Below, piece by piece: positions 1,029 through 53,090 of a stretch of DNA of 59,163 nucleotides. The position numbers were made by a program, and so were the translations under genes. The stretch comes from Minisyncoccota bacterium (lineage in GTDB: Bacteria > Patescibacteriota > Minisyncoccia > Phycocordibacterales > DATDWN01), in the NCBI GenBank assembly GCA_036517395.1, contig DATDWN010000001.1:1-59163 (forward strand). The letters run 5' to 3'. Within the stretch, counting starts at the first letter, position 1. Each line of letters starts with the position of its first letter. Below the pieces are notes generated by a model. The model saw nothing but the letters and a program-made list of their open reading frames with translations, did not search any database and had not been told where the DNA came from.

Positions 1029-2552
1029 ATGAAATATTTCCCCATCCCAAAAGAAGTTTCACGAGTAACAGAAAAGCTAGAAGAAGCTGGTTTTGAGGTT
1101 TTTCTCGTGGGTGGGTGTGTTAGAGATTTGATTTTGGGCAGGGAACCCAAAGATTGGGATGTCACAACCAATGCCAAGCCCGAGGAGATAATAGCACTAT
1201 TTGACAAGACATTTTATGAAAACGACTATGGAACGGTGGGTGTAGTCATAGCCCGCGAAGGCGAAGATGCTGAGTCAGCAGGCGAGGCATTGATTGTTGA
1301 GGTCACTCCCTACAGAATCGAATCGAAATATTCCAACAATAGACATCCGGATAGCGTCGTTTTCAGCCAGAAACTGGAAGATGATTTGAAAAGAAGGGAT
1401 TTTACAATAAACGCTTTGGCCTATTCTGTTCCTGCCTCGCCGGTAGGCAGGTCACATGGCCTGTCTGCGCAGGCAGGAACAATCACCGACCTATATAGAG
1501 GAGAGAAGGATATGAAAGACAAAATAATTCGCACGGTGGGGGATCCGGTAGATCGTTTTACAGAAGATGGCCTACGTATACTCCGAGCGGTCAGGCTTTC
1601 GTGTGAGTTGGAGTTTGAAATAAGTCCTGAAACGGAGAAAGCAATATTTGAAAATGCTCATCTTCTGAAAAACATATCAATGGAGCGTATTCGAGATGAA
1701 TTTACAAAGATAATTATGTCGAATAGGCCCATCGACGGCCTGTTGACCATGAAAAAACTTGGTATTTTGAAATATGTTGTGCCAGAACTAGAAAAAACTG
1801 TCGGGGTTGAGCAGAATCAAGCCCACGCCTATGATGTGTGGGAGCACTTGATACGTTCGGTGCAGTGTGCCGCTGATAAAAATTACCCCTTAGAAATCCG
1901 TTTGGCGGCTCTATTTCACGATATTTCCAAGCCAGAGTCGCGAAGACGAAACAATGAACAGAACACTTGGACTTTTTATGGGCATGAGGTCCTTGGCGCA
2001 CGTGTGACAAGAAAAATCCTAGAAAATTTGCGTTATCCTAGCAAAATAATTGAAAAAGTGGTCACACTGGCTCGTTGGCATATGTTTTTTTCTGACACTG
2101 AGCAAATAACGCTCTCAGCGGTCCGTAGAATGATTGTAAATGTTGGACGGGATAATATTTGGGATTTGATGAATGTACGCATATGCGACCGTATAGGCAC
2201 TGGCAGGCCTAAGGAAGACCCGTATAGGCTTCGTAAATACCACGCCATGATAGAGGAAGCGCTCCGCGACCCAGTTTCTGTCGGAATGTTGAAAATTAAT
2301 GGCAAGAGATTGATGGATGTTACTCATGAAACAGCTGGACCAAAGATTGGATATGTTTTGCACGCTTTGCTCGAGGAGGTTTTGGAGGAGCCAAAGAAAA
2401 ATACTGAGGAATACCTAGAAAATCGGGCCAAAGAGCTTGTTTTGCTTCCTGAAAATGAACTGAAAGCCCTAGGTGAGCAGGGGAAGTTGAGTAAAGAAGA
2501 GGCAGACGAGGAGGAAATCAAAAAAATACGTGGAAGGCATTATGTAAAATAA
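1029..2552 (+). CDS. cca: CCA-adding enzyme / poly(A) polymerase family tRNA nucleotidyltransferase with HD domain
   Basis: 507-aa ORF. Nucleotidyltransferase head LVGGCVRDLILGREPKDWDVTT and RRDFTINALAY. HD region LFHDISKP. Confidence 0.85.
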   Translation: MKYFPIPKEVSRVTEKLEEAGFEVFLVGGCVRDLILGREPKDWDVTTNAKPEEIIALFDKTFYENDYGTVGVVIAREGEDAESAGEALIVEVTPYRIESKYSNNRHPDSVVFSQKLEDDLKRRDFTINALAYSVPASPVGRSHGLSAQAGTITDLYRGEKDMKDKIIRTVGDPVDRFTEDGLRILRAVRLSCELEFEISPETEKAIFENAHLLKNISMERIRDEFTKIIMSNRPIDGLLTMKKLGILKYVVPELEKTVGVEQNQAHAYDVWEHLIRSVQCAADKNYPLEIRLAALFHDISKPESRRRNNEQNTWTFYGHEVLGARVTRKILENLRYPSKIIEKVVTLARWHMFFSDTEQITLSAVRRMIVNVGRDNIWDLMNVRICDRIGTGRPKEDPYRLRKYHAMIEEALRDPVSVGMLKINGKRLMDVTHETAGPKIGYVLHALLEEVLEEPKKNTEEYLENRAKELVLLPENELKALGEQGKLSKEEADEEEIKKIRGRHYVK

Positions 2553-5587: not shown

Positions 5588-6106
5588 ATGACCAAAAAAC
5601 AAGCCGTAAAAATAATAATTATTCTTTGTTGCATAGTTTTTTTGCTTTTGGTGTGTTTTTATTTTTTTTCTAATCCGCGTTCTGTTAAATCATTTGGCCC
5701 ATTCAAGTTGGGCGATCAAGCGCCCATTGTATCGGAGAATGTACCAGAATATGAATTTATTTATAGTTTGAAATATAAATTTTATATATATGCCATGGAA
5801 AAGAATATGAGTTATTGTGCGTTAGAAGATTGTGGGATGAGCGGAACTTTCGTTAGTTGTATGGGGGGATGGCTTTCCGCCGATGGCTTAAGTGGTGACG
5901 GTGGTGCAAACGACTATGGTTTAGTGGAAGAAGAGGTCGTGGAAGGAAAATCATCCATTATTTTAGTCGCAGATAAAGACAAGAAGATTATAGGTATATA
6001 TCCAAATTATAGAGTGCAAAATATTCCTTATATTTTAAAGAACTATCGCGATGTATTTGAAAGATTTGATTCGTGTTATGAAATGGAAATGCCAACTAAG
6101 TGGTAA
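5588..6106 (+). CDS. Membrane-anchored protein of unknown function (possible partner of 5127..5585)
   Basis: 172-aa ORF starting 3 nt after the previous stop. N-terminal TM helix IIIILCCIVFLLLVCFYFF. Confidence 0.65.
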   Translation: MTKKQAVKIIIILCCIVFLLLVCFYFFSNPRSVKSFGPFKLGDQAPIVSENVPEYEFIYSLKYKFYIYAMEKNMSYCALEDCGMSGTFVSCMGGWLSADGLSGDGGANDYGLVEEEVVEGKSSIILVADKDKKIIGIYPNYRVQNIPYILKNYRDVFERFDSCYEMEMPTKW

Positions 6107-6284
6107 GTACCAAGTTTATTAAACTGTCATTTTTTAAACAAAAGAAAACCCCTAGCGAACTTGTCGCTGGGGGTTTTGGCGCGTGGGAAACGAAGGGGAG
6201 GACAAAAGTGGCGACCGTGACAGCTCCGACGAAGCAACCGAACGCAAACGACACCATCGCCACGATGATGAACCATGGAAACAT
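6096..6284 (-). CDS. Small hydrophobic peptide downstream of the hammerhead (tentative)
   Basis: SD AAAGGAG 7 nt upstream of ATG 6284. N-terminus MFPWFIIVAMVSFAFGCFVGAVTVATFVL is a TM helix. The reading frame runs through the terminator hairpin, so the true C-terminus is uncertain. Confidence 0.35.
   Translation of the reverse strand: MFPWFIIVAMVSFAFGCFVGAVTVATFVLPFVSHAPKPPATSSLGVFFCLKNDSLINLVLTT
6141..6177. terminator. Bidirectional intrinsic terminator
   Basis: 10-bp stem CCCCTAGCGA-ACTTG-TCGCTGGGGG (6149..6173) flanked by an A-rich run (6141..6148) and TTTT (6174..6177). Confidence 0.65.
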
Positions 6285-6344
6285 TTGACACTCCTTTGTT
6301 TAGGAACTTTATCCCGTAGTGAACTTCGCTCTACTACTGGGAAT

Positions 6345-6393
6345 CTGTTTCGTTCTTTCGAACTCATCAGGCAAAGTACACACTTTGCTACAG
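6345..6393 (-). ncRNA. Hammerhead ribozyme motif, type III topology
   Basis: Minus strand: CTGT-A | GCAAAGT-GTGT-ACTTTGC | CTGATGA | GTTC-GAAA-GAAC | GAAA-CAG. Complete catalytic core, GUA cleavage triplet (bond between 6389 and 6388). Stem III is only 4 bp. Confidence 0.7.
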
Positions 6394-6629
6394 TAAGAGT
6401 TTTTGTACGGACTCTTAAACCGTAGATACATAATTCCCAGTGTTGCATCATTTCTGGGTAGGAAATGCAAAAATTTTATCTTGCATATTCCTTCAGTTTT
6501 TGCGGTCTCGCCCTGCCTTATTGTTGAACTGGTGGCTAGCCAATTCTGATTTCGTGCAGGATCCCCGCTCACACTTTGTTTAGTGGGTTTTATTGTCTAG
6601 GAGTTGTCCTTCTCCACCAAGAGTCAAGC

Positions 6630-6944
6630 TTAGTCTCGTCCGGTTGTTATCGGGCCCGAAGGTCCCCTACTTACTGCCTGTGGAAGTTTGCAAACTACTC
6701 GGCCATTATCAACCACCTTACCAATAAGACTTCGGAGATTTTCAACCGCATCTTGTGGCAGTTCACGTTCTGCGATAATCTCTGCATCTCTACAGCTACC
6801 GTCACATGTTGTGATTACGCGACGGTCTACTATTGGTGGTGCATAGATCATGTTGACATGTATTCCATCAACACAGTAGTCCATTATTGCTCCTGATGGG
6901 ACAGGAACGTCTCTCGCTACCCTGAAGAGTCTCATTGTAGGCAT
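6630..6944 (-). CDS. Small Cys-containing protein of unknown function, first gene of the hammerhead transcription unit
   Basis: Strong SD AAGGAGG 7 nt upstream of ATG 6944 (the track's GTG at 6953 lies inside the SD region). 104 aa, MPTMRLFRVARDV... No family recognised. Confidence 0.6.
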   Translation of the reverse strand: MPTMRLFRVARDVPVPSGAIMDYCVDGIHVNMIYAPPIVDRRVITTCDGSCRDAEIIAERELPQDAVENLRSLIGKVVDNGRVVCKLPQAVSRGPSGPITTGRD

Positions 6945-7023
6945 CCTTTTCACCTCCTTTTTACCCTAAGAGCCATCAAAGGGCTTTGTGTACATGTGAG
7001 AGATTATCCCTCTTTCTGACATA

Positions 7024-7052
7024 AGATTAGCATGAATTATGACTAGTGTCAA
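7024..7052 (-). promoter_or_regulatory. Sigma70-like promoter of the 6.1-7.0 kb minus-strand unit
   Basis: Minus strand TTGACA (7052..7047), 17-nt spacer, TAATCT (7029..7024). Divergent from the TrmB-like gene. Confidence 0.5.
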
Positions 7053-7173
7053 AATAAATGACATAAAATTATTAACAATATCAAAAGACTATCATACTAT
7101 ATATGGCTAGTAACAAGGATAAAACAGACTACTTGCATAGTTTTTACTATTTGCTATAATACTGTCATCTAAA

Positions 7174-7959
7174 ATGACAACAGTAAAAACATCAAAAGAT
7201 CCACAGATTTCTGACTACCTAGTGAGGGTCATGACTAATGTTGGATTATCTAAAAATCAGGCTTGTGTATACTTGGCTTGTTTGAAACTAGGGAACGCAT
7301 CTATTTGGGATATTTCTGAAACTTCTGGGGTTAAAAGAACCACCTGTTATGTGGTTATAAATGATCTGGTATCCAAAGGCATAGCTAGTGTAGGTGGAGA
7401 TAGTAAGAAAGCTATGTATTCTGTCATCAGTCCAAATGAATTTATATTTAGTTTCAAAAACAAACAAAATCAACTAGTGGAGTCAGTCAGTGAACTAAAT
7501 GCTCTAATAAGTAAAACTTATTCCAGACCTCATCTCAGAATGTTTGAAGGGATTGATGGAGTAGAACAAGCTTATAAGCTGACTCTCAATATTTCCGAGG
7601 GAAATGAAATACTAATTTATGGAAATCCTGATGTTGTTATCAATTATCAAGGCATGATTGATAATTATTTGAGACAAAGGGTGAAAGATGGAATAAAAGT
7701 CAGAGCGATTCTGCCTGATACACTACTAGCTCGAGAAGTTATAGGGAAAGACAAGGAACAATTGAGAGAAACTCGACTCCTATCGAAAAATACTTTTGAC
7801 CAACAGACAGAAATAAATATTTTACCGGATTCAATCATTTACATCGCCCATTCGGAAAATAAACCATTTGCCACGGTTATAGAAAACTCCACTTTAGCCA
7901 GAGAAGAAAAGGGAAGGTTTGAGATTTTGTGGAGTATGGCAAAACTAGAAGATGTTTGA
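7174..7959 (+). CDS. TrmB-like transcriptional regulator
   Basis: 261-aa ORF. N-terminal winged HTH (LSKNQACVYLACLKLGNASIWDISETSGVKRTTCYVVINDLVSKGI). Paralogous to 17577..18338. Confidence 0.75.
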   Translation: MTTVKTSKDPQISDYLVRVMTNVGLSKNQACVYLACLKLGNASIWDISETSGVKRTTCYVVINDLVSKGIASVGGDSKKAMYSVISPNEFIFSFKNKQNQLVESVSELNALISKTYSRPHLRMFEGIDGVEQAYKLTLNISEGNEILIYGNPDVVINYQGMIDNYLRQRVKDGIKVRAILPDTLLAREVIGKDKEQLRETRLLSKNTFDQQTEINILPDSIIYIAHSENKPFATVIENSTLAREEKGRFEILWSMAKLEDV

Positions 7960-17576: not shown

Positions 17577-18338
17577 ATGATTGATAAATATCTAGAAGAT
17601 GCGGGGCTTTCGGATAAAGAAGTGGCCGTATATTTGCACCTAGTCCAGGTGGAACAGGCCTCTGTAGTCGAACTGGCTCAAAAAACCAAAATAAAAAGGC
17701 CGACTGTTTACACCATACTCGACTCACTTTCAAAAAAGGGTTTAGTTAGCGAAATAGAGTATGACAAAAAAACTAAATATCTAGCTGAACCACCAGAAAG
17801 GTTAAAAACATTTATTGAGAGAAAAGAAATGTCTCTAAACGAACTAAAGGATCGTTTCGTTAAAGATGTGATACCACAAATAAAAAGCCTACAGAGAGAG
17901 AGCGGAGAGAAACCAATAGTAAGATATTTCTCTGGCAAAGAGGGAATAGTTAGTTTGCAAAACAATATATACTCCGGATCCCCAGATGGTTCTCCAATTT
18001 ATATACTTTATCCAAAGGATCTTTTAGATGAATCATTCAAGGATGAAGAAACAGATAAGTACAAAAAAACAAGAACAGGTATAGGAATAAAAGCGAAAGT
18101 CCTCTATAACTGGACAAAGGGGGAGAAGCCATCAGACGAATTGGCTGAAAGAAAGAAGGTTGACGAAAAAAAATATCCATTCTTCGCCGATATAACAGTA
18201 TATAAAGACAAAGTCAGAATTAGTATTTTAGGTAAAAAATTATCTGGAATATATATTGAGAGTAAGGACTTTGCTGAAACGTTGAAAAGTCTTTTCAATC
18301 TAGCCTTTGATAATCTAAAAAATAATTCGGATAAATAA
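17577..18338 (+). CDS. TrmB-like transcriptional regulator
   Basis: LSDKEVAVYLHLVQVEQASVVELAQKTKIKRPTVYTILDSLSKKGLV winged HTH. Paralog of 7174..7959. Confidence 0.75.
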   Translation: MIDKYLEDAGLSDKEVAVYLHLVQVEQASVVELAQKTKIKRPTVYTILDSLSKKGLVSEIEYDKKTKYLAEPPERLKTFIERKEMSLNELKDRFVKDVIPQIKSLQRESGEKPIVRYFSGKEGIVSLQNNIYSGSPDGSPIYILYPKDLLDESFKDEETDKYKKTRTGIGIKAKVLYNWTKGEKPSDELAERKKVDEKKYPFFADITVYKDKVRISILGKKLSGIYIESKDFAETLKSLFNLAFDNLKNNSDK

Positions 18339-18344
18339 GTCGAG

Positions 18345-18626
18345 GCCCGACCGAGTGAGGAGAAGCGATTCCCCATCCCTCGGCCGAGCCCCTGTGTTGC
18401 GATTCACTTCCCACCCCTTCGGAAGGGAGTGAACCTACTAGTCGAGCATCTTGCTCTCTTTCTTCTGGCCCCCTCCTACGTGGGGCCAATGAGACGAAAC
18501 TACGACTCTATAGTGAACACATGACTTGTTTTGGTGGAACTTCTGTCCCGCCCCGATCTGCGCTCTCAAAGGCAGCAGTATTATCGGGGCGGTCAGGCCA
18601 CCTTAGTCATGCATGGACACCTCCTG
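18345..18626 (-). ncRNA. Unclassified GC-rich RNA convergent with the TrmB-like gene (tentative)
   Basis: Minus-strand promoter TTGACA (18660..18655), 16 nt, TATACT (18638..18633). Hairpins CCGCCCCGAT...ATCGGGGCGG and GGCCCC...GGGGCC. Only 3-5 codon ORFs follow the AGGAGG. No clear terminator. Confidence 0.35.
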
Positions 18627-18806
18627 CCGACCAGTATATACCCCTCGTTTTATTTGTCAAGTTTAAATATTAAATGTTTATAAAACTGTTTAAAGAAGTG
18701 TCAAATTTAGTATAAATCAGTCAGTCTCGATTATCAATCATAATGTATAAAATGGCTTTATTTAGAGCTATTTTTAGTGTAGTAAGAAAGAAAATGTCAG
18801 AAGTAC

Positions 18807-18835
18807 TTGACAGAAAATACGAATAGGTATATACT
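18807..18835 (+). promoter_or_regulatory. Sigma70-like promoter of the 18.8-21.0 kb hammerhead unit
   Basis: TTGACA (18807..18812), 17-nt spacer, TATACT (18830..18835). Confidence 0.6.
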
Positions 18836-19273
18836 ATCTCCAGAATCAAAACATTGAAAGTCAGGACGGTTTGACAGATGTCTCAGCTTTTGCTTCCACT
18901 TAGGCGCCTGGATCGCACAAATTAGTTGCGAGAGGCCCTAGGCGGGAGCAAAAGCTTCCAACAAGACTATGTCACAGGTACAAATCCTGATTGGCGCTGG
19001 GATTGCTGTCCACTCGTTTGTGGATGGCGCCCGAGTGTCGCGGCCGAAGCTTCGGGAAACCGAAGTGGACGCCCTCGCCCATGCCCTGTGGCTTGAAAAC
19101 CACGGTCAGCAGAAGCGAGCTCTGAAGTATCTGGAAGAATATCTCCAGAGAAACAGAGGCAATACTTGCCACTTAGGTGGCGGCCGGGGTGTTATCGCAG
19201 TCCTGGGAACAGAAAATGCGTACGCGGTTGGTTAACCGAGAAACAAAAATAACCCAGTTGGCTTGCCAACTGT

Positions 19274-19326
19274 ATCTGTCGTCCGATGTGTGTCGGGCTT
19301 GATGAGTTCAAAAGAACGAAACAGAT
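19274..19326 (+). ncRNA. Hammerhead ribozyme motif, type III, variant core
   Basis: ATCTGT-C | GTCCGA-TGTGTG-TCGGGC | TTGATGA | GTTC-AAAA-GAAC | GAAA-CAGAT. Same architecture as the other two copies, but position C3 reads U (or CUUGAUGA with an extra U). Confidence 0.55.
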
Positions 19327-20072
19327 GTTCCTTAAAATTTTGAAAAATAACTTCGTGGCCATGTTACTGAATCTCAACTTTTTAGATTCAGTAACATGGC
19401 CATGGAGAGCCAGATAGTCCAGCGATGGACGATTCGTCTCGGACAGCACGACCGAGGCGGGGTTGTATCGAAAGATATAATCCAAATCTCCACATATGTG
19501 GTTAAGAGGAGGGTCTACCAAACCCGAGGCCTCTCAGCCACATATGTTCGTAGCGTTTGGCGATGCTACGAAAGTTAGAAGACGAAACAGGCCCGAGGAA
19601 GTGACTGTCCGAAGGGTTTCTGATGAAAGTCAGAAGTGTGCCAACACCTGTTAGTTGGAAAGTCAGTGGCTAGGCTTAGGGACCGCAAGTCTCTTTGCTA
19701 AAGCCTCCCCCATTACTGACACAGTGCGGTCGCAAATTTGCAAAAATTTGCGAAGGCAAAGTTGGGGGGAAACCAAGAGCGTAGAGCCAGACCTCATCGT
19801 ACAGAGGGAGAGTGGATTAAGCCCCACTCATGCGTGAAACCCCGGCCAGGGTGAATCGCAATAAGCTCTTGGTGGATATGGTGGGCAACCGGCCGTCCCA
19901 AAAGGACACAGGTTGTGGTTAAAAGAGTAGAACCGATCGCAAATCGGTGGTTGGAGCTCGGGGTCACCTGGGCGCAATCTACTCTGGAGGCAAAATTGAC
20001 CTTGTTTGCTTCCACCTTGTTCTTTCTTCAGGCAATAAATAAATTTGTCTGAACGTCGCCAGAACGCATCTG

Positions 20073-20127
20073 GTACTGTCGTCTGATGTGTATCAGACCT
20101 GATGAGTTCGAAAGAACGAAACAGTAC
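20073..20127 (+). ncRNA. Hammerhead ribozyme motif, type III, canonical core
   Basis: GTACTGT-C | GTCTGAT-GTGT-ATCAGAC | CTGATGA | GTTC-GAAA-GAAC | GAAA-CAGTAC. 7-bp stem III, GUC triplet (cleavage after C20080), GNRA-capped stem II. Confidence 0.8.
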
Positions 20128-20220
20128 AAGGTTTGTGTTTATTAGGGATTTCCTTAAAAGTAAATTATTTTGATAGTTTTCTTTTAAGGGAAATTCTTCC
20201 CTAGTTCTTTGAGGACACAC

Positions 20221-20619
20221 ATGACCAAAGTGACGATGGTTCTTCTCTTGGCGGCGTCGGCTCTCTTCGGCGGCTGCGACAAGCTCCTCGTGGTGCCCGT
20301 CCGCGCCTACTGCGACCGAGAGGTTTCGTACACTCTCTGGAAGCAGGAGGGAAGGGCCTACCGGCTCCACCTCAACGTCGGCGCGGTGGACGAACGGGTG
20401 TGCATCGGAAATCTCGATGTCTCCCGCGAGATCAACTTGTCGCAAGATGTTTCCTCACCCGAGGAAGCGGACAAGCTCGTCGAGAAGTATCGGCGTCTTT
20501 ACGCCGAGAAACTCGCCGCTCGGCGTCCCACCATGAAGCTGGAGCTTCCCAAGCTCCCAGCCAAGAGGCCTGCGACACCCCAGTCGCAGAACCAGTGTCC
20601 AAAACCCGATCCGAAATGA
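20221..20619 (+). CDS. GC-rich putative lipoprotein
   Basis: SD GAGGA 6 nt upstream of ATG 20221. Signal peptide with lipobox MTKVTMVLLLAASALFGG-C. Lys/Pro-rich C-terminus. 93 nt downstream of the hammerhead. Confidence 0.65.
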   Translation: MTKVTMVLLLAASALFGGCDKLLVVPVRAYCDREVSYTLWKQEGRAYRLHLNVGAVDERVCIGNLDVSREINLSQDVSSPEEADKLVEKYRRLYAEKLAARRPTMKLELPKLPAKRPATPQSQNQCPKPDPK

Positions 20620-25407: not shown

Positions 25408-27053
25408 TGATCAAAAAGATCTTAGAGGAAATAGAGAATCAGAAAATGACTATAAGTCAGTGGGTGCTTGGTTTCAGTGGTATACTTTTTGTTCGTTTTC
25501 TGTTTGAATCTCTTTCAAGTCCCACGAGTACGGGCATTATTCCTTCGGATCCTTATACATTAGTTCATTACGGACTTTTTTTCCTTTCTATTATTTTGGT
25601 TACGGCGTGTATTATTGGATTTATAACCAAAAATTACGAGGCGGGTGTGAAAGTAATTCTTTTTGGTTTGCCCGTTATTTGGCTTGCTCCTATCATTGAT
25701 ATTTTATTGAGCAGAGGTCTGGGGTACAAAATGACTTATATTTTCGATACGCATGGCAAACTGCTTTTTGATTTTCTGACATTTTTTGGCTCCAACCTAA
25801 CACACGGAGCGACATACGGTATTCGAGTAGAAATAATTCTCATTCTTGCGGGTGTTGGTTGGTATTTATGGTTGAAAACAAAAAATATATCCAAGACTTT
25901 GCTTGGGGTAATAGCCACTTATGTTTTAGGATTTGTAATGGCAAGTTTACCTGGAATTTTGTATACATTTTCTCATTTTCATGCGGGGACTACGATAGAT
26001 GTTCTAAAGTTTTTTGAGAATACAGTCAACGGGTCAAACATATTTCACAATACGCTTCATGATGGAAACCTTTCGGTATCAGCATCCAGATTTTTTGAGT
26101 TGGGATTTGATAAATTGATGTCTCAAATACTTTTTATTATTTCTTTTTTCTTTGGAGCATTACTTCTTTGGAAAATCGATAGCAAAAAATTTAGAGCTGT
26201 AATCGGGAATATTCGTTTGGAGCGCATATCTTCGTATATTGTTCTACTTCTCTGTGGGGCAGGATTCGCTTATATAAACAGACTAAGTGGTGAGTTAATT
26301 TGGGCAGATTTACTGGGACTTTTGTGCCTCATAATTTCTTGGGTTTCCCTGTGGATGCAGGCCGTGCACACAAATGACGTAAGCGATGTAAAAATAGACG
26401 AAATATCAAACACAGATAGACCCCTAATAAAAAAAGAATTAAATGAAAATGATATGCGACAGACAGGTTTTCTCTGGCTTGCTATCGCTCTTCTGGGCTC
26501 GTGGTCCGCTGGATTTTATCCATTTTTTATGGCTCTAGTTTTCGTTGCAACTTCATATATATATTCATCTTACCCACTACGCCTCCGAAGATTTCCTATA
26601 ATTCCATCATTTCTAATAGGCGTAGCCTCTCTCGCCACCATATTAGCTGGATTCTTTTTTATTTCGGCTCACAAAGAAATCGGAAATTTTCCAATGCTCC
26701 TCGCTGTGGGAATAGTGATCATGGTCACTCTTGCTATAAACGTCAAAGATATGAGAGATATAGAGGGGGATAGAGCTGATGGAATACTGACTCTGCCTGT
26801 GCTTTTTGGCCAAAACGGGGCGAAAATAGTGGGGCTATGTTTGGCTCTAAGTTTTCTTCTTGTGCCGATTTTTCTATCTTTCTATGCTTTATATATCTTT
26901 TCCATACCAGCGGCGATTATCGGCTATAAGCTAGTTACAAAAAAACCATATACAGAAAAACCTCTTTTTATTTTACGTTTTGTTTTTTTGGCTTGTGTTG
27001 CATTTTCTTACCTCGGTGTGTATTGGTTAGCACATTTGTACGGTGTGATATAA
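25404..27053 (+). CDS. Polytopic membrane protein with C-terminal UbiA-family prenyltransferase domain
   Basis: NDVSDVKIDEISNTDRP (NDxxDxxxD) and DMRDIEGDRADGILTLP motifs. Many TM helices. Confidence 0.75.
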   Translation: MMIKKILEEIENQKMTISQWVLGFSGILFVRFLFESLSSPTSTGIIPSDPYTLVHYGLFFLSIILVTACIIGFITKNYEAGVKVILFGLPVIWLAPIIDILLSRGLGYKMTYIFDTHGKLLFDFLTFFGSNLTHGATYGIRVEIILILAGVGWYLWLKTKNISKTLLGVIATYVLGFVMASLPGILYTFSHFHAGTTIDVLKFFENTVNGSNIFHNTLHDGNLSVSASRFFELGFDKLMSQILFIISFFFGALLLWKIDSKKFRAVIGNIRLERISSYIVLLLCGAGFAYINRLSGELIWADLLGLLCLIISWVSLWMQAVHTNDVSDVKIDEISNTDRPLIKKELNENDMRQTGFLWLAIALLGSWSAGFYPFFMALVFVATSYIYSSYPLRLRRFPIIPSFLIGVASLATILAGFFFISAHKEIGNFPMLLAVGIVIMVTLAINVKDMRDIEGDRADGILTLPVLFGQNGAKIVGLCLALSFLLVPIFLSFYALYIFSIPAAIIGYKLVTKKPYTEKPLFILRFVFLACVAFSYLGVYWLAHLYGVI

Positions 27054-27056
27054 TTA

Positions 27057-27192
27057 ATCCGCACACCAACTCTGGCATAGTTGCATAGTGTTTTTATTAA
27101 ATACACTACTTGATACAAAATTATCGAGATCAATGTTTTATAGAAATTCTTAACATGCAACAAAAACACAATGCCAGAGTTGGTGTACGGAT
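27057..27192 (+). repeat. Family B hairpin element ending just before a start codon (copy 1)
   Basis: Terminal inverted repeats ATCCGCACACCAACTCTGGCAT... / ...ATGCCAGAGTTGGTGTACGGAT. ATG of 27195 is 2 nt downstream. Confidence 0.75.
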
Positions 27193-27194
27193 AA

Positions 27195-28028
27195 ATGCCA
27201 AGTAATAAAATTCTAACAATACTGATCATTTGTTTTGGAATCGTAGTGGCAATTTACCTATTTGAGAAAACCCCGAAACAAATTTCTCAAAACAATACAT
27301 CTCCCTCGCAAAATATAGATGTGGGAAGTGTAAATTCTATTGAAAACACCAGCAATGATGATTGGAAAAAAATACTGGTCTCGATTGGTCAGAGCAGTAC
27401 AACTGTTTTGACAAACCAAAACCCAGAAGTTTTCGACGGCACCACCATAACATCCCAAGTGGCAAAAGATTTTTTCTCTCAATATTTGCTCGCAAAGGGA
27501 GGTGGTGGAACCGTGACGGTAGATATGGCAAATAAAATCAGTGATAGCGTCCTATCAAATACGAACTACACCCAAATAAATGGACCGATTTACATAGCGG
27601 AAAACCTCCATATAAAACAAGAGGAAAATCTAGACATAATAAAAAGTTACAAAACAACTCTCAATCTAATCTTGAAAACTAGGTCAACCCAAGTTACAGA
27701 CAGCCCTGTAACGGCTATAAACAAAGCAACCAAGGCGGGCGGACAAGATGCTCTTCTGCGACTAGACTCTACTATTTCCATAGCCAAGGGCCTAGTTTCC
27801 GATCTTTTGCAGATGAACGTTCCAAAAAGCGCCGTTTCCGCACACCTCGCCCTTCTCAACGCCACAAGTGATGTTGTCTCTGACTTGGAAGCCATGCGAG
27901 TGGCATTTACGGACCCCATCAGGGGTCTTGCTGGTATAGGTCAATACAACAGCGACATGATCAAATTTCAAAACGCACTGATTGAAGTGAATAAATACTT
28001 GGCCCAGAAAACAGGCTCAAACATATAA
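27195..28028 (+). CDS. Membrane-anchored protein, first gene of the T4SS-like cluster
   Basis: 277-aa ORF, N-terminal TM ILTILIICFGIVVAIYLF. Confidence 0.7.
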   Translation: MPSNKILTILIICFGIVVAIYLFEKTPKQISQNNTSPSQNIDVGSVNSIENTSNDDWKKILVSIGQSSTTVLTNQNPEVFDGTTITSQVAKDFFSQYLLAKGGGGTVTVDMANKISDSVLSNTNYTQINGPIYIAENLHIKQEENLDIIKSYKTTLNLILKTRSTQVTDSPVTAINKATKAGGQDALLRLDSTISIAKGLVSDLLQMNVPKSAVSAHLALLNATSDVVSDLEAMRVAFTDPIRGLAGIGQYNSDMIKFQNALIEVNKYLAQKTGSNI

Positions 28029-52722: not shown

Positions 52723-52732
52723 TTTATTTTTT

Positions 52733-52866
52733 ATCCGCACACCAACTTCTGTCTCGTTGCCCTGTCTCAGAGTTTAGTTGTACATCTCTATTTTAGAGAT
52801 AAAAACTAACTTCGCAAAGCTTTCAATGTCGCAACACAGAGACAAGACAGAAGTTAGTGTGCGGAT
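52733..52866 (-). repeat. Family B hairpin element (copy 3)
   Basis: ATCCGCACACCAACTTCTGTCT... / ...AGACAGAAGTTAGTGTGCGGAT. On the minus strand it ends GTGTGCGGATAAAAAATAAA-ATG. Confidence 0.75.
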
Positions 52867-53090
52867 GAATATTTTATTAATCATTACTCGGCATATTTGT
52901 ATCAAATTGTATATTTTTTGCAAACATCTTATCCAACTCAATTTGTGGATAACTTTTTATCTGCGACGAGAGAGGAGCGCGTGAATGTGTAATCACATTC
53001 ACAGCGTCCGAACGAGGAGTAGCAATGGTAAAAACCCCGCCCCTCTGGGGCGGAACAGGGGTCCAGGACTTGCCCTGGGGTTTCATACCA

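Follow-up and report, generated by a model that had tools for sequence, protein, structure and literature searches.

The 59,163-nucleotide stretch of Minisyncoccota DNA analyzed here (the window) contains, on its minus strand at positions 6393 to 6345, a sequence that we designate HH3 and that an original prediction, made from the letters alone, had read as a hammerhead ribozyme with a perfect core. The letters bear this reading out. From 6393 to 6345 the minus strand is CUGUA GCAAAGU GUGU ACUUUGC CUGAUGA GUUC GAAA GAAC GAAA CAG, and on sequence grounds HH3 is a complete type III hammerhead with a perfect core, for which self-cleavage is predicted. It lies between two open reading frames (ORFs) of the same strand, 6944..6630 and 6284..6096, the latter of doubtful coding status and followed by a terminator-like hairpin. 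The kilobase 6001-7000 has a guanine-plus-cytosine (GC) content of 0.44, compared with 0.33-0.34 in the flanking kilobases, in agreement with the proposal of a separate GC-rich locus. The parts of HH3 are listed here, where R1 denotes a covariance model of the hammerhead family that is described below.

6345..6393, minus strand: HH3, type III hammerhead (from its sequence, family model R1 and a core pattern present in 0 of 100 shuffles)
6393..6390, minus strand: stem III 5' strand CUGU, ending in U16.1; pairs with 6348..6345 (4 base pairs including A15.1-U16.1)
6389, minus strand: H17 = A, giving a GUA triplet; predicted cut between 6389 and 6388
6388..6382 with 6377..6371, minus strand: stem I, 7 base pairs
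6381..6378, minus strand: loop 1, GUGU
6370..6364, minus strand: core CUGAUGA
6363..6360 with 6355..6352, minus strand: stem II, GUUC-GAAA-GAAC, 4 base pairs
6359..6356, minus strand: loop 2, GAAA
6351..6348, minus strand: GAAA after stem II, its last A pairing with U16.1
6347..6345, minus strand: CAG closing stem III

The conserved hammerhead core is complete (C3 U4 G5 A6 N7 G8 A9, together with G12 A13 A14). U6390 pairs with A6348 to form A15.1-U16.1, and H17 is A6389 rather than a G, in agreement with the GUA triplet and the predicted cut position of the original reading. Stems I and II are capped by loops, stem III is open, and the three helices comprise 7, 4 and 4 base pairs. The pattern CTGATGAG-N8-14-CGAAAC is matched twice in the window, at HH3 and at 20099, and in none of 100 dinucleotide-preserving shuffles. 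By sequence and predicted structure HH3 has every testable feature of a type III hammerhead and falls short only of the Rfam score cut-off.

When the window was searched with Rfam at gathering scores, tRNA alone was reported and no hammerhead. In E-value mode, Hammerhead_3 (RF00008, clan CL00010) matched HH3 with 24.0 bits at 6342-6384 on the minus strand (E = 1.1 over the whole window and 0.021 over the 1.15-kb island), HH2 (20073-20127) with 44.9 bits and HH1 (19274-19326, core UUGAUGA) with 24.9 bits; all three hammerheads of the window therefore score under the cut-off of 48.5 bits. The low score of HH3 arises because stem I is misaligned, being skipped in the Rfam alignment, and because the stems are compact. 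RF00008 expects a stem I of about 5 base pairs where HH3 has 7, a stem II loop of about 8 nucleotides where it has 4, and a stem III of 7 base pairs where 4 are found, whereas the CUGAUGA ... GAAA core, the A15.1-U16.1 pair, the closed stems I and II and the open stem III are shared. No ribozyme class besides the hammerhead was found in the islands by Rfam at E <= 10.

We therefore scored the window with R1, a model of 107 non-redundant relatives from other contigs from which the window sequences were excluded. HH3 scored 71.8 bits (E ~6e-21) at 6398..6340 on the minus strand, HH2 74.2 bits at 20071..20129 and HH1 65.8 bits at 19271..19329; these were the only three matches, the next reaching 11 bits. 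HH3 thus joins the copies at 19.3 and 20.1 kb as the third hammerhead of one family, as had been claimed, and we regard its membership in the family as nearly certain. HH3 and HH2 are identical in stem II and loop 1, an identity that had been taken as a sign of common descent. Stem II and its loop do lend weight to that argument: the exact 24-nucleotide string of core plus stem II, with its GUUC-GAAA-GAAC variant, was found at only five loci, all in Candidatus Saccharibacteria metagenome-assembled genomes, in a collection of 185,579 species with one genome each. All five have CUGU-H, a 7-base-pair stem I of differing sequence, and a GUGU or GCGU loop. Loop 1 does not by itself do so, since GUGU occurs throughout the family, viral contigs included. 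The confinement of the exact string to Saccharibacteria, together with synteny between the window and L061, also indicates that the window is probably part of a Saccharibacteria-like chromosome.

To describe the family more broadly we used a looser retrieval pattern, which fixed loop 1, the core, the outer pairs of stem II and the AAA, and left free the 5' strand of stem I, U16.1 and H17, and stem III. Matches were obtained on 25 viral contigs and on at least 119 from metagenomes. Two viroid-sized records of 366 and 377 nucleotides (L014 and L018) have the same hammerhead architecture, with 67-68 bits against R1. By sequence, members of this hammerhead family are thus present in genomes of Saccharibacteria, in metagenomes and viral contigs, and in two records of viroid size. 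Among 131 distinct pattern matches, 129 have a perfect 7-base-pair stem I, and none has one when the strand is slid by 3 nucleotides; U16.1 together with a non-G H17 is present in 127 of the 131, and a stem III of at least 4 base pairs in 121. In the alignment of the 107 relatives, 94% of cells are paired, compared with at most 48% in slid controls, although this set was prefiltered for minimal stems and its paired percentage is partly so by construction; the test on the 131 matches is unaffected. Changes on both sides were seen at 14 of 17 base pairs across the 107 relatives, and covariation is heavy in all three stems. Neither loop 1 (U-GUGU-A) nor loop 2 (RAAA) varies along with the stems. 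This constancy fits a tertiary contact between the two loops, although the retrieval pattern had itself fixed part of each. The GUA cleavage triplet of HH3 is found in 27 of the 190 copies of the family.

These 190 copies are mostly intergenic, with 19 of them inside a same-strand ORF of at least 100 amino acids. The start of a same-strand ORF lies within 250 nucleotides of 174 of the copies, at a median distance of 29 nucleotides. Where a locus has several copies (n = 36), they are on a single strand in 34 cases and mostly 250-1200 nucleotides apart. Genes downstream of the hammerheads are diverse, and about one in six starts with a hydrophobic segment. The 36 nucleotides upstream of family hammerheads are more structured than controls (median -10.5 versus -5.45 kcal/mol, p = 2e-13) and the 36 nucleotides downstream less so (-1.8 versus -5.0 kcal/mol, p = 1e-14). 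At L058 937-2217 (plus strand), three identical hammerhead-plus-leader units stand before successive small genes beside gatA.

The stem III of four base pairs, correctly counted in the original prediction, had raised the question of whether cleavage might need a double hammerhead. Counted with A15.1-U16.1, stem III has 4 base pairs in 60 and 5 in 80 of the 190 copies, so that HH3 lies within the family norm. Folded alone, HH3 has a hammerhead fold of -11.2 kcal/mol and a minimum free energy (MFE) fold of -12.8 kcal/mol; the gap of 1.6 kcal/mol compares with a median of 1.9 in members with 4 base pairs. When the hammerhead helices are enforced, a 7-base-pair hairpin (6394..6417) abuts the 5' strand of stem III. 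This hairpin could stack on the short helix; after the predicted cut it would be 5 nucleotides from the new 3' end. Given the family norm, the typical energy gap and the abutting hairpin, a double hammerhead appears not to be needed, and the short stem III should, if anything, speed release of the 5' product. For the stretch 6640..6285 (356 nucleotides), which takes in the spacer, HH3 and the leader downstream, the folding z-score is -4.5. The elements around HH3 are as follows.

7174..7959, plus strand: divergent gene of a TrmB-family regulator (Pfam PF01978, E 4e-12)
7036..7064, minus strand: weak promoter-like site from a consensus scan, in the AT-rich divergent region common with the TrmB gene
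6630..6944, minus strand: small protein gene, 104 amino acids from the ATG at 6944, alternative GTG start at 6953; preceded by AAAGGAGGUG; strong Shine-Dalgarno sequence
6629..6394, minus strand: spacer, 236 nucleotides
6574..6666, minus strand: further conserved 3' element including GGGACC-UUCG-GGCCC, overlapping the last 12 codons of ORF 6944..6630
6497..6573, minus strand: R2 core hairpin, GUGAG[C/U]GG-GGAU-[covarying stem with or without CUAGCCA-loop arm]-G-CGAGA-CC[G/A]C (covariance model)
6461..6491, minus strand: hairpin GGAAUAUGCAA...UUGCAUUUCC between R2 and HH3, with no U-tract after it (MFE fold of 6640..6285)
6394..6417, minus strand: hairpin UAAGAGU-N10-ACUCUUA, 7 base pairs, abutting the stem III 5' strand (fold with hammerhead helices enforced)
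6313..6341, minus strand: leader hairpin CCCAGUAGU...ACUACGGG, 3' of the ribozyme (MFE fold of 6640..6285)
6096..6284, minus strand: hydrophobic ORF of 62 amino acids, doubtful coding; AAGGAG Shine-Dalgarno sequence at 6296..6291, ATG at 6284
6136..6177, minus strand: terminator-like hairpin AAAACCCCCAGCGA-CAAGU-UCGCUAGGGGUUUU followed by CUUUUGUUU (U-tract); 14-nucleotide arms, 93% complementary

The flanks of HH3 had been described as a small protein gene with a structured spacer of about 240 nucleotides on one side and a small hydrophobic ORF on the other. The spacer, of 236 nucleotides, is indeed structured, although part of it constitutes a separate, conserved RNA element (R2, below), and the ATG lies 60 nucleotides after the motif. 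The protein gene stands, since remote homologues show that ORF 6944..6630 is real. While a word-indexed protein search returned no homologue for either the small protein (ORF107) or the 62-amino-acid ORF, an exhaustive phmmer search of 1.8 billion representatives found nine homologues of the 104-amino-acid protein, of 73-123 amino acids (E 2e-10 to 5e-4). The ORF107 family (~75-100 amino acids) has invariant Cys24, His29, Cys47 and Cys51 and a conserved core that ends near residue 77. It is unannotated, with no Pfam or PHROG match. The confident AlphaFold2 model of the 104-amino-acid protein is beta-rich, with a predicted local distance difference test score (pLDDT) of 86, and at E <= 0.001 Foldseek found nothing similar to it in the PDB. 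On the other side, it is doubtful whether the hydrophobic ORF is a gene. It has no homologue, its own sequence standing alone in the collection as one gene call on one contig, and the gene calls viewed on eight identical public contigs do not include it. It also runs through the terminator hairpin at 6136..6177, which a simple terminator scan did not list, and its stop codon lies about 40 nucleotides past the U-tract, so that a terminated transcript would have no stop codon.

We examined six loci with homologues of the small protein (five homologues; L158, L159, L281, L282 and L283/L284), and all six have a short operon divergent from TrmB. At L282 a hammerhead of the same family (68.9 bits) is located 50 nucleotides upstream of the ORF107 homologue, and at L283/L284 family hammerheads of 59-65 bits lie between operon genes; the TrmB-divergent operons of L159 and L281 have no family hammerhead. 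L158 has, at 2363-2434 (plus strand) between genes of its TrmB-divergent operon, a hammerhead-like sequence with CUAACGA (G5 to A) and a 37-nucleotide stem II; this sequence has either decayed or is a variant. Judged from these sequences, the TrmB-divergent type of operon is conserved, and the ribozyme is often present in it but not at a fixed place. The wider neighbourhood of HH3 includes TrmB, Fic, toxin-antitoxin genes and exonuclease III, and no prophage or integrase neighbourhood was found; elsewhere in the window are chromosomal housekeeping genes (CCA-adding enzyme, ComM, UvrD, PBP1, GatB and a VirB4-like ATPase). A BLAST comparison of the HH3 island with 50,697 phage records gave no match, and the four ORFs of the island have no PHROG match and nothing in Pfam. 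Around the island, a search for flanking direct repeats marking an insertion found only short, AT-rich, chance-like repeats.

The hammerhead class has long been known, and HH3 is a solid but ordinary member of it, save for a conserved, unnamed hairpin just upstream. We call this element R2. Positions 6666..6499 of the minus strand are 84% identical to L069 9055-9224 over 171 nucleotides, and the R2 core is 89% identical to L069 8407-8480, just upstream of the L069 hammerhead. The string GGGACCUUCGGGCCCGA.AACAACCG.ACGAG, at 6630-6666 (minus strand) and L069 9062-9102 (plus strand), forms the C-terminal codons of unrelated ORFs in different frames, and a 1-nucleotide indel between the two ORF tails restores the same stop codon. 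As two unrelated ORFs read these bases in different frames, it is the RNA or DNA that is conserved and not the protein; the tails of the ORFs resemble read-through into an RNA element. The outer helix of R2 has 4 base pairs, G[C/U]GG with CC[G/A]C, in which one pair is C-G in some copies and U-A in others. Next comes an internal loop, asymmetric and rich in purines, with GGA(U) opposite (G)CGAGA, and then the covarying inner helix; some copies have the CUAGCCA-loop arm. A canonical kink-turn was considered for this loop by manual inspection of its strands, which have the G-A/A-G signature, but the C-G/U-A register leaves an extra G and the loop is kink-turn-like only. R2 has no Rfam match at E <= 10.

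The R2 model found 11 copies in 8 contigs, with scores of 25-78 bits; the genome and metagenome collections were scanned with hammerhead patterns only. Six of 10 pairs change on both sides, in an alignment fitted to the model. R2 follows the stop codons of unrelated small ORFs at distances of 5-73 nucleotides. A same-strand hammerhead follows 24-107 nucleotides after R2 in 8 of the 11 copies, and an intrinsic terminator in two (L069b and L282); in the L283 copy, neither a hammerhead nor a terminator was found in the 130 nucleotides inspected. The gap between R2 and HH3 is 103-107 nucleotides, depending on whether the 77-nucleotide model match or the shorter regular-expression core is used, and is longer than in other copies. 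At L146 45-854 (plus strand), a block of R2, hairpin and hammerhead is repeated 691 nucleotides apart, and both this repeat and the units of L058 resemble cassettes arrayed in tandem. When viral contigs were scanned with the pattern GGGGAT-N17-47-GCGAGACCRC, at least 119 loci matched; none among the matches listed has the P1 and P2 pairings, and these matches appear to be due to chance.

Several further elements of the window were observed. The interval between HH1 and HH2 (19330-20070, plus strand, ~740 nucleotides) is conserved with respect to the syntenic L061 6540..5820 (minus strand), which is likewise flanked by two hammerheads, with 89% mean column identity in a 900-nucleotide alignment and 84% identity by BLAST over 790 nucleotides. 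It contains no long ORF and matches no Rfam family at E <= 10. Since tblastn matches occur in all three frames and differences compensate within hairpins, the interval appears to be a structured non-coding RNA, and it is a candidate for an RNA excised by ribozymes. HH1 (19274-19326, plus strand) has UUGAUGA, a C3-to-U change without a compensating G8-to-A change, and may be impaired; its L061 orthologue retains CUGAUGA and has a stem II of 22 nucleotides. Downstream of HH2, an ORF for a 136-amino-acid lipoprotein-like protein (20209-20619, plus strand) has a 38%-identical relative at L085 7573-7797, which sits between two hammerheads on an unrelated metagenome contig. Directly after a second TrmB gene (17577..18338) is a GC-rich, hairpin-dense stretch (18340-18660) with no Rfam match, and after this stretch a promoter-like TTGACA-17-TATACT at ~18808-18836. 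Two long, near-perfect hairpins of ~140 nucleotides at 27053-27196 and 52729-52870 have the common ends UUAUCCG[U/C]ACACCAAC. Rfam gave them only spurious, sub-threshold mir-5014 matches, and the pair may represent a small repeat element.

In our analysis HH3 is probably a functional hammerhead that cuts a short minus-strand transcript after A6389 and so separates its two halves. Transcription across the site, cleavage, the chemistry of the ends and any effect on expression are what we infer for HH3. The transcript would run for about 900 nucleotides on the minus strand, from the AT-rich region at ~7040-7060 to the terminator at ~6140. Stems I and II would fold co-transcriptionally, and the four-pair stem III would then close, probably aided by stacking of the 7-base-pair hairpin and by contact between loops 1 and 2, whereupon the RNA would cut itself after A6389. 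Hammerhead cleavage leaves one end with a 2',3'-cyclic phosphate and the other with a 5'-hydroxyl. The upstream product would thus be an mRNA for the Cys/His protein with the conserved 3' untranslated region (3'-UTR) element and hairpins, ending in the cyclic phosphate. The downstream product, of about 250 nucleotides, would have a 5'-hydroxyl and begin at stem I, with the folded ribozyme as a cap-like structure at its 5' end, followed by the leader hairpin, the Shine-Dalgarno sequence, the hydrophobic ORF and the terminator. Stability and translation could then differ between the two halves, as would accord with published proposals (PMC3088659; PMC6765202), and the short stem III would free the 5' product and thereby prevent reversal.

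A number of observations weigh against this proposal. The match of HH3 to RF00008 misses the gathering score, and nearest-neighbour folding favours a competitor in which the CUG of the core is paired with the CAG of stem III (-12.8 versus -11.2 kcal/mol). In the 356-nucleotide context the free fold reaches -104.8 kcal/mol, compared with -98.2 kcal/mol when the hammerhead is enforced, a cost of 6.6 kcal/mol; the energy model gives no credit for the non-canonical pairs of the core. The ATG is 60 nucleotides from HH3 with a hairpin in between, whereas the family norm is about 29 unstructured nucleotides. The promoter consensus scan returned 4 sites against 3.3 expected from shuffles, and so shows no enrichment. 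The locus is identical in seven of eight public contigs, with a single mismatch in one 900-nucleotide contig; because the public copies are nearly all identical, local evidence of selection is absent. The hydrophobic ORF may not be a gene, in which case cleavage described as intercistronic may amount to 3'-UTR trimming. Finally, the C3-to-U change in the core of HH1 shows that copies of the family can decay.

This last observation leads to the possibility that HH3 is itself a decaying or silent copy, brought in with horizontally acquired GC-rich DNA and either untranscribed or trapped in an inactive fold. The raised GC content of the locus, the altered cores of HH1 and of the L158 relative (the latter with its enlarged stem II) and the predicted competing fold are consistent with this, but we consider it unlikely: the core, the 7 + 4 + 4 base pairs and both loops of HH3 are intact, its 71.8 bits are within the range of intact members, the energy gap to the competitor matches that of other members with 4 base pairs, and HH3 lies in the orientation of its operon's genes, as is the case at 34 of the 36 multi-copy loci. 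Cleavage might also be conditional, with the ribozyme switched off by a bound factor or by pairing of ACUGUA (the stem III 5' strand and cleavage site) with UACGGU at 6425..6420, so that the ratio of full-length to cut RNA would be regulated, perhaps with the neighbouring TrmB. The MFE fold of the 356-nucleotide context does contain this helix, which disrupts stem III, enforcement of the hammerhead carries the energetic cost given above, and regulated cleavage has been raised for bacteriophage hammerheads by Perreault et al. (PMC3088659). However, the alternative helix is without comparative support, no diverged orthologue of the spacer having been found, co-transcriptional folding favours the local hammerhead helices, and flanking hairpins across the family abut the ribozyme rather than compete with it; we hold a conditional switch to be rather less likely still than a silent copy. 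Least probable by far is that HH3 belongs to a retrozyme or viroid-like element that yields circular RNA by double cleavage and ligation. The two viroid-sized records of the same architecture and the conserved 740-nucleotide non-coding RNA bounded by HH1 and HH2 bring such an element to mind. The island 6000..7150, however, contains a single hammerhead and no other Rfam ribozyme at E <= 10; with only one ribozyme a unit-length RNA could not be excised there, and we reject this reading. Perreault et al. also looked for circular RNAs produced by clustered hammerheads of bacteria, without finding any (PMC3088659).

A further reading, which overlaps with cleavage of a two-part transcript, gives R2 a part in the process. 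HH3, R2 and the spacer hairpin might form a recurrent intercistronic "punctuation" module at the boundaries of small-gene cassettes in Saccharibacteria-like genomes, with R2 as a functional partner (protein-binding or protecting the 3' end) and the ribozyme setting the 3' end at a fixed, short distance after it. The regular position of R2 just past the stop codons of unrelated small ORFs points to such a module, as do the same-strand hammerhead after most copies, the repeat of the whole block at L146, the three identical units at L058, the conservation of the R2 region at the RNA level in two frames and the covariation of R2. Against it, R2 copies are few, the gap between R2 and HH3 in the window exceeds that of the other copies, the pair counts come from a model-fitted alignment and the protein partner is hypothetical. 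Moreover, most of the ~190 family hammerheads are without R2, so the ribozyme does not depend on it. We therefore offer the module as a tentative explanation only, and are slightly more hesitant about its extension, namely that R2 and HH3 both belong to a so far undescribed system of RNA punctuation in Saccharibacteria-like bacteria of the Candidate Phyla Radiation (CPR). In GC-rich and often TrmB-linked operons, every small-gene cassette would then finish with a conserved 3'-UTR structure and be severed from its neighbours by compact type III hammerheads.

Separation of the two halves of a transcript has precedents. Clustered hammerheads of bacteria and prophages flank single genes and cut polycistronic RNAs of ~2 kb in vitro and in E. 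coli (PMC3088659), and processing into single-gene mRNAs has been proposed for them (PMC3088659; reviewed in PMC6765202), although the role of bacterial hammerheads was still called largely elusive in the 2019 review (PMC6765202). The family of HH3 resembles these clusters in being intergenic, on the gene strand, often in several copies per locus, and beside variable small genes. The published examples, however, are largely type II or stabilized by pseudoknots and lie near integrase and phage genes (PMC3088659), whereas HH3 is of type III with a loop-loop build and sits in a chromosomal TrmB-divergent operon without phage genes beside it. Retrozymes, the non-autonomous retroelements of plants and animals, resemble it in having type III hammerheads with a short stem III that occur in repeated units of genomic DNA, but they need two hammerheads in direct repeat and yield circular RNAs, where the HH3 island has one (PMC4918200).

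The two viroid-sized records have a stem I of 6-7 base pairs closed by UGUGUA, a stem II of GUCC-RAAA-GGAC and a short stem III, like HH3. Judged by length, they may be the sobemovirus virusoids of velvet tobacco mottle and of Solanum nodiflorum mottle; if so, the architecture is presumably that of the classical compact type III hammerhead and not a new one. Virusoids, the small satellite RNAs of plant viruses, are replicating circular RNAs in which the ribozyme cuts multimers into units, unlike the single copy of HH3 between genes of a bacterial chromosome. In the literature searched, no paper links hammerhead ribozymes with Saccharibacteria, and the word hammerhead appears together with the Candidate Phyla Radiation only for RNA polymerase domains. 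R2 and the cassette-like organization may be new.

These results bear on how such ribozymes are annotated. At its gathering score the Rfam type III model overlooks a large and well-supported compact subfamily, and annotation pipelines will consequently under-report hammerheads in CPR bacteria and viral contigs. The HH3 locus also represents a clean test case, with one ribozyme, a two-part transcript of ~900 nucleotides and an adjoining regulator, and with homologous operons in which the ribozyme has moved or is missing and a 3'-UTR hairpin that travels with the ribozyme. Should the punctuation reading be true, each small protein would be made from its own mRNA, with a 5' end capped by the ribozyme and a 3' end capped by R2, and the near-identical modules of L146 and L058, together with the occurrence of R2 on unrelated ORFs in different frames, would point to shuffling of cassettes.

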